Source of the DNA: Leptonemataceae bacterium
GTDB lineage: Bacteria > Spirochaetota > Leptospiria > Leptospirales > Leptonemataceae
Assembly: GCA_965227295.1 (NCBI GenBank)
Contig: OZ245742.1
Location: 5,568,001-5,632,000 of the forward strand
DNA: 64,000 nt
Direction of reading: 5' to 3'
Position 1 is the stretch's first letter; the number at the start of each line of letters is the position of its first letter. The notes beneath the pieces are model-generated. The model ran no database searches, was not told the origin of the DNA, and worked only from the letters and a program-made list of their open reading frames with translations. Positions 19,157-25,866 of the stretch are shown here, one piece after another. The position numbers and the translations under genes are program-made.

Positions 19157-20347
19157 TCAGCGCGGGCGCCCGTCCGAGGCATAGTACACGAAATCCACCC
19201 GGCCACCGTCGGCATCGCGGATTTCCAGTTGTTTCGGCCGCCCCATAAATGCCTGCGCTTCGAAAGCCCAGCGCGTACCGGCTGCATTCCAGCGCACGTC
19301 GCGGCCGCGCGCGGTCGTAAGCAGAGTTTCCGAAGTGAAACCGACCGGGAAGATATCAACGGGCGGAGTGGCCTCCCCGCTAAGAGCATAGAGTTTTATG
19401 TGATACGTGGTAGTACCCTCCGGCCACTGCCCGGTAACAAAACGCTCAGAAATCAAGAGACGATCGGAGTCACCACCCCACCGCAAGTCAGCTACCAGAT
19501 GCTCCCAGAGCGGCTGGCATCTGACTCCGCTGCGTACCGCCCGCGGATCACTGCCGTCTGCGGCGCGAGTCCAGACGTCGCAACGGCCGAAGCTGTACGC
19601 GATTCGACCGCCATCCGGCGAAACCCGCAGATGCGAGATGCCGTAGCGCCCGTACGGAGTAGCCGATGAAATATCACTGAACGTCAACAACTGTAGATCG
19701 CTGCCGTCGATATTCACCGCATACAGAAAATAACAGCCGCCATGATACACGGTAAATACGATCCGACTGCTGTCAGGAAACCAGTCGGCAGCATTCACGC
19801 GCGCAGGATAGACTGATGTTTCCGTACCGGATGTGAGATGGTGAACCCTGAGGCCCGTCGCATCCTGAAGGAGCATGTATTCCCCGTCCGGCGACGTAAG
19901 CACCGGCGCCTGGCCAGGTTGTTTCACGAACCTCCGCTCCACTGGATCGTAATCCATCCGGAAATAGTTGCCGCTCTCATGAAAGCGAAACTGCGGACCG
20001 GGTCCGGACCATTCCAGGCCTTCCATCGCATGTGCACCGCCCTCGTACAACAGCCAGACCGCATCGGAGCCGATCATCTTGCCGTAGATATTTTCCCGCC
20101 ACGTCGAAGTAGAAGGCGGCGCAACGAAAATCAGGTCCACCTCCGGTACGTTTTGCCTCAGCGCGTTTGGAAACAGCGGGCGGCTGACCGGCGAGGTCGG
20201 TGCCGCGTCCACGGCGTCCTCGACATCCGACACCGGGGCCAGCGCCCCCAGCAACGCCAGGGCCTCACCGCCGTCGGAACCACCGGAGCCGCCGCAAAAC
20301 GTAAGCAGCACAAGGAATGTGGCCGGCAGGCTAATGTTTGCGCGCAT
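19157..20347 (-). CDS. TolB-like beta-propeller lipoprotein
   Basis: Lipobox LTFC; SPDG / WFPDSSRIVF / SPDGGRIAYS PD40-like blades. Confidence 0.7.
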   Translation of the reverse strand: MRANISLPATFLVLLTFCGGSGGSDGGEALALLGALAPVSDVEDAVDAAPTSPVSRPLFPNALRQNVPEVDLIFVAPPSTSTWRENIYGKMIGSDAVWLLYEGGAHAMEGLEWSGPGPQFRFHESGNYFRMDYDPVERRFVKQPGQAPVLTSPDGEYMLLQDATGLRVHHLTSGTETSVYPARVNAADWFPDSSRIVFTVYHGGCYFLYAVNIDGSDLQLLTFSDISSATPYGRYGISHLRVSPDGGRIAYSFGRCDVWTRAADGSDPRAVRSGVRCQPLWEHLVADLRWGGDSDRLLISERFVTGQWPEGTTTYHIKLYALSGEATPPVDIFPVGFTSETLLTTARGRDVRWNAAGTRWAFEAQAFMGRPKQLEIRDADGGRVDFVYYASDGRPR

Positions 20348-20614: not shown

Positions 20615-22581
<1,967 letters not shown>

Positions 22582-22712
22582 TTCGTCGCAACGGTCGCCC
22601 ACTCCGGCCCGCGATAGAGCGGGCCTCCGGAGTGGGTCAGCGGCGGGTGGGGTTGGATGGTTCGAATCGGCCCTGTCTTACCGTTTGTGTTTTTCAGATT
22701 CGTTTCTTAAAC

Positions 22713-22751
22713 AAAAGGCGTGGTTCCGGTTTTCGGGGCCGCGCCTTTTTT
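22713..22751 (+). terminator. Rho-independent terminator downstream of groEL
   Basis: AAAAGGCGTGGTTCCG..CGGGGCCGCGCCTTTTTT GC-rich stem with U-tract. Confidence 0.7.
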
Positions 22752-22764
22752 GGTAGAGAACTGT

Positions 22765-23367
22765 ATGTCGGATATTCTAAAAGCGGCGGGGGAGTTGGAT
22801 ATCGGGAACGTCGCCTTGATCCTGCTGTTCTTGATTCCTGGCTTTCTTTCGCTGAAAGTTTATGACACACTGTTTCCGAGACAGCCGCGTGATCTTTCTA
22901 AATCGATTATCGAAGTGCTGATGTACAGTGCGCTGAATTACGGCGCGCTTTCTTGGCTCATTTACCTGAGTCTTTATATCCAGATCGCCTGGCTGAAAGC
23001 GCTTACATTGATTCTCAGCGTTCTGATCATGCCGATTGCGTGGCCGGTGGGCTACTACAATCTCCTCAAGATCAGTTGGTTTCGAACCCGCCTGGGAATT
23101 CATCCGATTCCGGTCCCCTGGGACTATGTTTTCGGTAAAGGGAAACCGTACTGGATTATCGTCCATCTGAAGGACGGCCGAAAAATTGGGGGTCGTTATC
23201 ATACCGACTCTTTTGCCTCTTCGTTTCCCGAATCTCCCCAGATCTATGTCGAGGAAGTCTGGAAACTCTCAAAGACCGGCAAATTCCTGAAACAAATCGA
23301 ACGCTCTCAGGGGATTATTCTTTTCTCTGAAAGCATTGACATGGTCGAATTCTTCGAATACGATTAA
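22765..23367 (+). CDS. DUF6338-like membrane protein
   Basis: Three N-terminal TM helices (LIPGFLSLKVYD..), then PWDYVF..YWIIVHLKDGRKIGG.Y...SFASSFP...QIYVEEVW; lower GC than the flanks. Confidence 0.8.
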   Translation: MSDILKAAGELDIGNVALILLFLIPGFLSLKVYDTLFPRQPRDLSKSIIEVLMYSALNYGALSWLIYLSLYIQIAWLKALTLILSVLIMPIAWPVGYYNLLKISWFRTRLGIHPIPVPWDYVFGKGKPYWIIVHLKDGRKIGGRYHTDSFASSFPESPQIYVEEVWKLSKTGKFLKQIERSQGIILFSESIDMVEFFEYD

Positions 23368-23373
23368 GACAGA

Positions 23374-23529
23374 ATGAGCGATAAAGAAAAAACCCAAAAA
23401 GTAAATAATGGCTACCAACCTACGTCAGGTGTAAAGGGGGGATACCAACCCGTCTCACAGGGCGGCTCCCAATCCCCGCCCAATCCTCCGAAAGGTGGAT
23501 CCGGAGTCCCCGAGAAACCCAAATCGTAA
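23374..23529 (+). CDS. Small 51-aa GYQP-repeat, Pro/Gly-rich peptide (absent from the ORF track)
   Basis: ATG 6 bp after the DUF6338-like stop; MSDKEKTQKVNNGYQPTSGVKGGYQPVSQGGSQSPPNPPKGGSGVPEKPKS*. Confidence 0.7.
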   Translation: MSDKEKTQKVNNGYQPTSGVKGGYQPVSQGGSQSPPNPPKGGSGVPEKPKS

Positions 23530-23625
23530 CCCGGTTCGTCCCTCTTGCGTTAGCGATCCGCAGCGCGTAGCGCGGACGGGAACGCCTAAAAACTGTTTCA
23601 ATTTTTTTATGTTCCGGATGATCCT

Positions 23626-24093
23626 GTGATTATGATACGTCCTTGCCAGACTCTGTTTTTCTTGTTCCTCACGCTCCCCCTCCTCTCCTGCTCCGTCATG
23701 CTTAACGCCGACCTCTCCTACATCTACGCCGACGGCAGCGGGAACCGGTACATCCTGCGCCAGGCCGATGCTTCGCAACGAGATTCCATCGACGATGCGC
23801 GGCGCATTGAGCTCGCGTACGAACCCGTAACGCCCACGCAATCTTCCAGCGGCGTCTACAGCGGCGGCGAACCCTGGACCGTCGCCCTCTCAAACGAGGA
23901 CGCGGCCGCGCTCGCCCGCCTGTTCGAAGATGCATTGCACGAAGTAAACGCCCACCAGGAGAATCGTGCCATGGGTACCGGTGAAGTCAGCCGCAAGACG
24001 TCGACGAACAGTACCCGCCGCGTTTTGCAAAGCGGCGCCCCGATCAAAGCGAAGCTCGAAGCGGCACTCTCGAAGTTCGCGCCGACGCCGTAA
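23626..24093 (+). CDS. Hypothetical lipoprotein
   Basis: Lipobox LLSC; Y.YADGSGNRY and Y.PVTP..SSSG.YSGG motifs. Confidence 0.7.
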   Translation: MIMIRPCQTLFFLFLTLPLLSCSVMLNADLSYIYADGSGNRYILRQADASQRDSIDDARRIELAYEPVTPTQSSSGVYSGGEPWTVALSNEDAAALARLFEDALHEVNAHQENRAMGTGEVSRKTSTNSTRRVLQSGAPIKAKLEAALSKFAPTP

Positions 24094-24105: not shown

Positions 24106-25866
24106 TTATCTTACGGTGAATGCGAATTGCGTGGTGTTTTCCCCGGTGATGATGAAGTCCGCGCTCGTCACGCTTCCCGACGTCGGTAGACTGCCGGAGA
24201 TGCCGGTGAAAATGTAGAGTTTGCCGGGAGTTCCGCCCGAGTCTCCGATCATCAATTCACGAATACCGTCGCCGTTGACGTCCGCCGCACCGAGTTCGTC
24301 CTGGCCGGTTCCGGCCGTTACGCTGGTATAGATGCCATCGGCGCCGGACAGGGTCGGCGCGACCGTCGGAATGCTGCCGCTTCCACGAAAGACATAGACC
24401 GTGCCGAGGTTCGAAGACGCGTCGAAGTTGTAATTCGGGGCCGATGCAATAATGTCATCGAAGCCGTCACCGTCCAGATCCTTTAACAATATATCATCGT
24501 CACCTAAGCGCGCGCCAGCCTGATCGCCGGTGATCATGAGCGACGCCGTTCCGTCGGCCGTGCCCGTGCTCAAGCGCGTCGTCCCCCCCGGGAAGAGATA
24601 GACCGCCCCCCGGGTCGAGTTAAACGTCGGCCCGGATGCCACAAGGTCCGCAAAGCCGTCGTTGTTGTAGTCCCCCGTTTCGACGTACGCGAAGTTGCTG
24701 TTCGCACTACCGGTGATGGTAGCAGTGGCGACGGCGCCGATGTTCCCGCCGGATATGCGCTCCGCGTTACCGTAGAGAATGTACACCCGCCCGGTCTCGG
24801 CGGTGGCCGGATACAGATTCGAGCCGACGATGACGTCCATGTATCCGTCCGCGTCGAGATCGCCGCTGGCTAATGTTCCCCGGCCGCTACCTAACTCATC
24901 ACCCACATTTTCTCCAACGAGCAACGTATTCACGGATGCGTCCACCGTGGTCACCCCGACGGACTCCGCCCGGCCATGTAAAATGTACAGCTCACCCCGC
25001 GTGCCCGAGGAGTTATTCGAAATGCCGATGAGATCGTCGAAGCCGTCACCGTTGACGTCTGCCAGCTCCAGCCCCCGGCCGGAACTGAGCTCGGCATACA
25101 GCTGCACTTCAGCATCCGCATACGCCGTACTGTTGAGTCCGGTACTGCTTCCAAAGAAAACCGCGTGGACCCCCTGACCGCTGCCCGGCGCTAAGTCCGC
25201 ACCGGGAACAGTTATCCCGAGATCGCCGTAGCCGTCGCCGTTGAAGTCGCCGAACGCCAATCGTTCGCCGGCCCGATCCGCGACCGCGCTCCCCGGGAGC
25301 TTTAAGTTCGCCGCCGACGCGTTCCGGGATACCAGCGCGTCGGGGCCGCCGTAAAACAGATAGGCCGCACCGGAGTTAGCTCCCGCCGACGCATCGGTGT
25401 TGTCGTGAGCAGCGTAGTCTGCATAGCCGTCGCCGTTGACGTCCCGATTGAAATCCTTCTTGATCGTAAAGGTTTGTGCGACCGAGGGCGAGTAATAGAT
25501 GGACCGCGAACGTACCTGAACGCTGTGGCTCGTGCCGTGCCGCCAGGTATCGGCTCCGGTTGGCAGAGCGTAACTCCAACTGTTGCCCGAAACCGTCCCT
25601 GGAAAAAAGGCGCCGCCGTCGATCGACACCTCTACGGACAGGCCCGGCTCCGCAATTACGCTACCGACCAGAAAACCGGACTCGATCGCGCCCCCGTCTC
25701 GAACGTTCAAAGCGACGGGCTGCACGGGAAGATTGACCGCGAAAAAGACGAGCGGATTGCAGAAAACATCCGTGAAGGTGCAGTCCGTGGATGAGGTGCA
25801 ACCCGAAGCGAAGACCGCGGGGAATGCAATCGCCGCGAAGCCCACAGATCCGAGAAAACGAAGCAT
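24106..25866 (-). CDS. FG-GAP (integrin-alpha-like) repeat lipoprotein
   Basis: Lipobox ASGC; Ig-like segment; repeated DxNGDGxxD..GAxYxFxG blades. Confidence 0.85.
   Translation of the reverse strand: MLRFLGSVGFAAIAFPAVFASGCTSSTDCTFTDVFCNPLVFFAVNLPVQPVALNVRDGGAIESGFLVGSVIAEPGLSVEVSIDGGAFFPGTVSGNSWSYALPTGADTWRHGTSHSVQVRSRSIYYSPSVAQTFTIKKDFNRDVNGDGYADYAAHDNTDASAGANSGAAYLFYGGPDALVSRNASAANLKLPGSAVADRAGERLAFGDFNGDGYGDLGITVPGADLAPGSGQGVHAVFFGSSTGLNSTAYADAEVQLYAELSSGRGLELADVNGDGFDDLIGISNNSSGTRGELYILHGRAESVGVTTVDASVNTLLVGENVGDELGSGRGTLASGDLDADGYMDVIVGSNLYPATAETGRVYILYGNAERISGGNIGAVATATITGSANSNFAYVETGDYNNDGFADLVASGPTFNSTRGAVYLFPGGTTRLSTGTADGTASLMITGDQAGARLGDDDILLKDLDGDGFDDIIASAPNYNFDASSNLGTVYVFRGSGSIPTVAPTLSGADGIYTSVTAGTGQDELGAADVNGDGIRELMIGDSGGTPGKLYIFTGISGSLPTSGSVTSADFIITGENTTQFAFTVR

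Follow-up and report, generated by a model that had tools for sequence, protein, structure and literature searches.

Genes of the DUF6338 family of membrane proteins form a conserved two-gene pairing with a small gene for a disordered peptide directly downstream, and this partner peptide is a feature of the family across phyla. The copy described here lies behind groEL in a 64,000-nucleotide stretch of a Leptonemataceae genome, which we refer to as the window. The module is real and widespread, and we found no functional description of it in the open literature. We propose that it is a mobile, peptide-restrained membrane effector of anti-phage abortive infection, a reading to which we assign a probability of about 0.45. 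Its established part comprises the pairing, the mobility of the cassette, the conservation of the peptide motifs at the protein level, and the enrichment beside defense genes.

The cassette behind groEL and its conserved pairing

An AT-richer two-gene cassette behind the groEL terminator had been predicted for this locus, and both the composition and the terminator-like hairpin with its T-run were located (Table 1). The cassette has a GC content of 48.4% compared with 59.8% for the genome, which places it in the lowest 0.8% of 7762 segments of 765 nt, and its DUF6338 gene has a GC3 of 0.59, whereas 58 control genes average 0.74. The peptide frame begins after a gap of 6 bp and carries the two GYQP motifs and the PPNPPKGGSG tail expected of it. 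Two different REP-like dispersed repeats bracket the cassette, with 35 other blastn matches in this genome for the upstream one and 17 for the downstream one; both are taken as host elements. A search around the cassette for long direct or inverted repeats that would frame it in the manner of an insertion sequence or a target-site duplication found none. In two congeneric genomes (G001 and G002), unrelated genes lie behind groEL and the cassette is missing there. Contigs from two public sequencing runs, which may be the source sample, span the stretch with no differences listed.

The start codon of the DUF6338 gene lies only about 11 nt past the end of the terminator-like T-run, and this copy of the peptide gene lacks a Shine-Dalgarno sequence. 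Expression of this particular copy is therefore putative, which we count against the effector reading. The sigma-70-like match near the end of the DUF6338 gene is unconserved in homologs and may be due to chance. We also considered and rejected an internal promoter for the peptide that homologs would share, as such matches occur at 14/89 loci and in 11/89 control stretches.

Table 1. Features of the cassette and its surroundings (coordinates of the window)
Feature	Position	Strand	Remarks
groEL	20926..22581	+	host context, outside the module
REP-like hairpin of a dispersed genomic repeat family	22598..22636	.	arms 22598-22607 and 22627-22636; host element
Intrinsic-terminator-like hairpin and T-run after groEL	22713..22753	+	arms 22713-22728 and 22734-22749
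DUF6338 gene, 200 aa	22765..23367	+	predicted three TM helices and C-terminal Sm/Hfq-like beta domain
Membrane region	22801..23070	+	helices 13-36, 44-71, 75-102; conserved P25-G26-F27, S55, N58, P90
Predicted Sm/LSm/Hfq-fold domain	23098..23364	+	residues ~112-200; W119-D120-x-x-F123 helix and S149-x-x-S152-x-x-P155 loop, both conserved
Sigma-70-like promoter match (10/12)	23336..23364	+	within the 3' end of the DUF6338 gene; 9 nt separate it from the peptide ATG
Disordered partner micropeptide, 51 aa	23374..23529	+	GGSG-tail class
GYQP motif 1	23410..23421	+	peptide residues 13-16
GYQP motif 2	23440..23451	+	peptide residues 23-26; most conserved alignment columns
PPKGGSG tail motif	23485..23505	+	within the PPNPPKGGSG tail
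Copy of a second dispersed genomic repeat	23553..23593	.	just behind the cassette; host element

Farther downstream, a 155-aa ORF (23626-24093, +) has a lipoprotein-like N-terminus and no match in Pfam or NCBIfam. It is absent from the four relatives searched and its family was not seen among the recurring neighbors, and we therefore exclude it from the module. The groES-groEL region is flanked by genes for an FG-GAP repeat protein (24106-25866, −) and a propeller-like exported protein (19157-20347, −).

The pairing was assessed in 101 loci with a profile match (71 from GTDB, 29 from IMG/VR, and the one described here). Five truncated ones were dropped, which left 96 whose C-terminus is whole and whose downstream side spans 250 nt or more. 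In 90 of these 96 loci, a G[YFWH]xP motif lies no more than 330 nt downstream on the same strand. The controls give 6-8%, with 6/96 for the opposite strand, 7/89 for the upstream side, and 6/85 at a distance of +1.5 kb. The other six encode variant peptides, with SYQP or AYRP in place of the motif and the PP..G tail kept. A rule that makes no use of the motif (35-100 aa, at least 65% disorder-prone residues, and a start near the stop) identifies a partner at 62 of 67 DUF6338 genes against none of 306 other genes of the same GTDB loci. The original prediction stated that GYQP..PP.GGS peptides recur beside DUF6338 genes and proposed a scan of the flanks of homologs for such small ORFs; the statement is borne out by either rule. 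The two genes are linked, co-oriented neighbors, as the genes of type II toxin-antitoxin (TA) pairs are. When 79 DUF6338 proteins from 15 phylum-level groups, one of them from an archaeon, are placed on a quick tree, the tail class of the peptide changes seven times compared with 30.3 times after shuffling, with seven rows left as "other" by their tail pattern, which indicates co-inheritance and not co-evolution.

Among 91 distinct peptides, each carries one to four G-aromatic-x-P motifs. All synonymous codons are in use across 114 GYQP motifs, and selection thus acts on the protein. A Shine-Dalgarno sequence precedes 75 of 89 peptide start codons but only 1 of 89 control ATGs. The peptides have a low-complexity, disorder-prone composition, and searches of the peptide returned no Pfam, NCBIfam, or PHROG match and no DNA-binding antitoxin domain. 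Peptide genes occur in tandem at several loci, two each at L044, L061, L065, L070, and L107 and three at L110. In-frame fusions of DUF6338 and peptide were found in 2 of 204 stored proteins (P0073 and P0143) and at locus L064, some of which may be lost stops; an AlphaFold2 model of P0073 shows no clear docking of the tail (pLDDT 60-67), which is almost without alignment depth. Split or shortened genes number about ten for DUF6338 and two to three for the peptide, roughly in proportion to length, and some of these may be assembly errors.

More distant members of the family extend this picture. By eye, 15 of 21 more distant DUF6338 loci have another small disordered ORF just upstream or downstream and six have none, one of the six being probably a false match. 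Such partnerless relatives are something that a strict toxin would not allow, a point that again counts against the effector reading. The genome described here itself holds three more distant paralogs, namely L004 (G000:C1:82061-82717), which is interrupted by an internal TAA and preceded by a disordered ORF of 62 aa; L005 (G000:C1:2764001-2764552), with a 42-aa ORF downstream; and L006 (G000:C1:607585-608040), which has no clear partner. Partner peptides of the distant subfamilies at L140, L142, L143, L144, L147, L148, and L005 carry an ES[YF]...[KR]S[FY]-like motif; judged by eye, this motif and the EGY...KGY context of the GYQP class may be homologous.

A membrane protein with a predicted Sm-like domain

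Residues 14-198 of the DUF6338 protein match Pfam PF19865 with an E-value of 5e-37 and a score of 127.9 bits, where the cut-off lies at 26.5, and cover positions 6-201 of the 205 in the model; the family has 2627 clusters at 50% identity. Neither cassette gene has a match in NCBIfam, PHROGs, or PADLOC, none of the PADLOC 2.0 families is matched by any of 49 members at E 0.01, and a search of the ESM Atlas through homolog P0024 returned only DUF6338 and unnamed clusters. The three TM segments and beta-rich C-terminal domain foreseen from the sequence appear both in the column hydropathy, which supports three hydrophobic helices, and in an AlphaFold2 model (pLDDT 85) that has three long helices followed by a beta domain. 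The inside segments have lysine-plus-arginine counts of 2.6 and 6.2 and the outside ones of 0.7 and 1.1, which predicts an N-out/C-in topology, and the beta domain would therefore face the cytoplasm.

Among solved structures, the best matches of residues 112-200 are Sm, LSm, and Hfq proteins (Z 8.3-8.6, rmsd 1.8-2.7 Å over 62-76 aligned residues), with identities of 9-19% in the top alignments. A best Z of 7-8 is common for this tool, but the leading matches in this case belong almost entirely to one superfamily. Foldseek likewise has only Sm proteins in its top rows (best E 2.7e-3), and a second homolog again gives the Sm/Hfq fold (Z 8.1). These models predict an Sm/LSm/Hfq fold with an N-terminal helix for the C-terminal domain. 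Sequence searches returned no Pfam match besides DUF6338 at E 0.1, and a profile search of PDB sequences gave two unrelated matches only (E 0.17 and 0.35). The conserved positions, which apart from those in Table 1 are G143, F174, G183, and E195, suggest in our judgment no catalytic site.

Mobility and the defense neighborhood

Horizontal movement of the cassette, as originally suggested, is well supported by its low GC, its patchy distribution, its absence behind groEL in the congeners, and copies on plasmids, in prophages, and in Tn7 cargo. PF19865 occurs in 2/41 genomes of a set of relatives and 17/401 of a phylum set, both including the genome described here, and the cassette in 10/5426 E. 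coli genomes; one E. coli search, with L001 as the query, found nothing. The two genes of the module fit into less than 800 bp and occur naturally in E. coli prophages, one such copy being WP_021544535.1 with WP_021544534.1. Some copies lie on plasmids amid RelE/ParE, MazF, and other TA genes, and chromosomal ones lie beside TA genes. Elsewhere, the cassette is a lone chromosomal insert behind housekeeping genes. Upstream genes are co-oriented in 49/66 cases and lie within 150 nt in 31, many of them being housekeeping genes, like groEL here.

To characterize the neighborhood, we took the closest called genes to the left and right at all 71 GTDB loci, which gave 127 proteins (trimmed to 500 aa), and compared them with 114 genes from 16 arbitrary 8-kb stretches in genomes of this bacterium's family, a control that is not taxon-matched. 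PADLOC matches of at least 100 bits were found for 19/127 neighbors compared with 2/114 control genes (Fisher p 2e-4; about 1e-3 after collapsing close kin), an enrichment to be read with the caveats that kin are not independent, that any mobile cargo collects in such places, and that one of the 19 is a housekeeping RecQ. Two further observations count against the effector reading: at a looser threshold (E up to 1e-8), the difference shrinks to 25/127 against 11/114 (p 0.03), and 108/127 neighbors are without a strong PADLOC match, many of them housekeeping genes.

Individual sites are telling in their detail. At L040, the cassette sits between pglW and pglX, inside a BREX operon; at others, it follows SMODS and SLATT genes, follows an E2/E1-JAB operon, or precedes TIR and caspase genes in Tn7 cargo. 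In prophages, it lies behind P2-like integrases or between genes for an SNF2-type helicase and a VRR-NUC protein. This last slot is hypervariable among the best 80 of 224 VRR-NUC relatives (one representative per cluster). It holds the cassette in seven, a count inflated by the VRR-NUC query having come from a carrier, BstA in two, PDC-S42 in six, methylases in four, and a weak TIR-like match in four, and it spans at most 181 nt in 14 of the same 80. BstA is an abortive-infection protein (PMC8585504). The enrichment and the prophage slot speak for the defense-type role in the original prediction, by guilt by association.

Other occupants of these sites deserve mention in their own right. An unannotated family of membrane proteins of about 265 aa (L214:4307-5101, −, and 13 further loci) fills the slot in 14 of the best 80 of 224; it has no match in Pfam or PADLOC and is a candidate defense gene. 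The PDC-S42 gene (L193:5076-5951, −) is paired, in 6 of the best 80 of 224, with a membrane protein of 189 aa that lacks annotation (L199:4281-4847, −). An E. coli prophage with the cassette (L158; NZ_CP014667.1) has TIR-domain and SIR2 genes in neighboring slots.

A complex prediction with three DUF6338 copies and the peptide gave an ipSAE of 0.47 compared with 0.00 for the best control. This value should be read against a calibration in which 116/157 solved pairs and 2/215 mismatched ones come up to the mark, in which the range up to 0.60 holds only 18 solved pairs together with both mismatches, and from whose set-up this job differs. The runs share at least 85% of their contacts, and the partner has a pLDDT of 58-59. 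With regard to a ring of DUF6338 subunits, the score covers the peptide as partner alone, and the job gave no interface. Docking of the peptide on DUF6338 is thereby given weak support, and together with the natural in-frame fusions this favors, to that extent, the physical partnership that had been proposed.

In the mechanism that we envisage, the three TM helices would anchor a cytoplasmic Sm/Hfq-like domain, and DUF6338 subunits would assemble as a ring or pore. The peptide, disordered and putatively protease-labile, with its one to four repeats and sometimes two to three gene copies, would bind several subunits at once and keep the effector shut. Phage infection could act as the trigger by halting host protein synthesis, or by cleaving or displacing the peptide, upon which the effector would open and depolarize or kill the cell. 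Note here that the Sm fold in MscS does not form the ring contacts (PMC3710371); a ring therefore does not follow from the fold alone. A more ambitious version, in which DUF6338 would be the first membrane-anchored Sm-fold ring and an immune pore that a multivalent linear-motif peptide, encoded by its own gene, opens and shuts, with subfamily peptide codes (GYQP, GVNxNP, and ESF..KSF), and would represent a widespread, unannotated class of anti-phage switch in bacteria, archaea, and prophages, appears doubtful to us.

Several other explanations could account for parts of these data. The module could be an anti-phage system in which the peptide is an activator or a bait, nucleating DUF6338 assembly or capturing a phage protein and passing the signal on to the membrane protein, with both genes needed and neither toxic alone. 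The pairing, the defense context, and the predicted docking would fit this equally, the in-frame fusions and the partnerless distant relatives suit a non-toxic default, and varying numbers of repeats and gene copies would be expected of a diversifying bait. However, the high abundance that related peptides reach in uninfected cells (PMC10433244) agrees just as well with a standing inhibitor, and the explanation names no phage partner for the bait; we consider it unlikely. A selfish addiction module, which would stabilize plasmids, prophages, and islands by post-segregational killing and have no anti-phage activity, agrees with the proximity to RelE/ParE, MazF, and other TA genes on plasmids and to TA genes on chromosomes, and with the patchy distribution. 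Yet the cassette also sits within or at the end of defense operons, and where it stands alone on a chromosome behind housekeeping genes it would have little to stabilize, which leaves addiction an improbable explanation.

We give an equally small chance to a miniature MscS-like channel regulated by the peptide, which would serve in osmotic or heat stress and not in conflict. The three TM helices, the predicted N-out/C-in topology, and the Sm-like domain do recall the MscS plan (PMC3710371), a minimal MscS of TM and beta domains is a working heptamer (PMC12334622), and groEL precedes this copy. Against this, we find no sequence similarity to MscS, neither a PF00924 match at E 0.1 nor, by hhalign against an MscS of the same genome, a probability above 0.1%; the sporadic, mobile occurrence and the congeners without the cassette also argue against it. 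That MscS is missing from the top-50 structural lists carries no weight here, as with the whole model as query these lists were filled by Sm-domain matches. Such matches, the best being Hfq, LSm, and SmAP, would suit an RNA-binding ring of the Hfq type that is anchored in the membrane and has the peptide for a detached regulatory tail. This appears slightly less probable still, given that Pfam returns no Sm/Hfq match, that the conserved motifs (W-D-x-x-F and S-x-x-S-x-x-P) are not the Asp of Sm loop L3 (PMC3710371; loop mapped by eye), and that in the cassette region no Rfam family reaches its gathering score (best BcKCsr2, 20.3 bits against 40). Finally, an exported signal or RiPP precursor, with DUF6338 as its receptor, exporter, or immunity protein, would fit the repeated short cores, which resemble multi-core precursors, and the DUF6338 genes in biosynthetic gene clusters (PMC10433244), but is highly improbable in view of an I/L/V content of about 9% with no hydrophobic signal segment, no recurrent modifying enzyme or transporter among the neighbors, a beta domain predicted to be cytoplasmic, and the near-complete coverage at which the Pseudomonas stutzeri peptides discussed below were observed (PMC10433244).

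Comparison with known systems

The closest precedent comes from P. stutzeri, in which three Pro-rich proteins of 36, 47, and 41 aa are translated directly behind a DUF6338 gene, with 44-114 PSMs and 98-100% sequence coverage (PMC10433244). The SEP1, SEP5, and SEP2 operon resembles our module in having a DUF6338 gene followed by small, disordered, Pro-rich proteins with PPPPKK-like tails; it differs in that these proteins lack GYQP and resemble another peptide class, found at L138 and L141. The authors term these peptides unconserved and possibly de novo genes, and give neither function nor fold (PMC10433244). Beyond this report, our search of the open literature, paper supplements aside, found no account of a DUF6338/PF19865 partner; defense-screen tables could list DUF6338. 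If the peptide-restrained effector is the true reading, the published view of the P. stutzeri peptides as unconserved de novo genes would be overturned (PMC10433244). It would also mean a new effector architecture in bacterial immunity, TM helices joined to an Sm fold, and a new principle of control by a multivalent short-linear-motif peptide. In any case, a family of this size carries a nearly invariant small partner.

HigBA-type type II TA pairs have a toxin-first gene order. Our module shares with them the larger gene in first place and a small disordered partner in second, as well as its mobility and its location near TA and defense genes. It differs in having no DNA-binding antitoxin domain, in that the putative toxin would be a polytopic membrane protein, and in matching no known TA family. 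Abortive-infection membrane effectors such as SLATT, the CBASS TM effectors, and Pepco/EACC1 (10.1101/2025.11.14.688446) are likewise small TM proteins with one soluble domain and occur in defense operons and prophage accessory slots; in contrast to these, the module has no fixed nucleotide-signal enzyme or protease, and the micropeptide is its sole constant partner. MscS channels, including the minimal TcMscS, share three TM helices followed by an Sm-like beta domain in the predicted N-out/C-in arrangement, whereas DUF6338 has neither sequence similarity to them nor their alpha/beta cage domain, is sporadic, and has a dedicated peptide partner. The predicted fold of residues 112-200 is that of Hfq, Sm, and LSm proteins, from which DUF6338 differs in its membrane anchor, its low identity, its different conserved loop, and in that no RNA partner was found. 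Taken together, the module lies outside every catalogued family and most plausibly works like a toxin-first TA pair or an abortive-infection switch.
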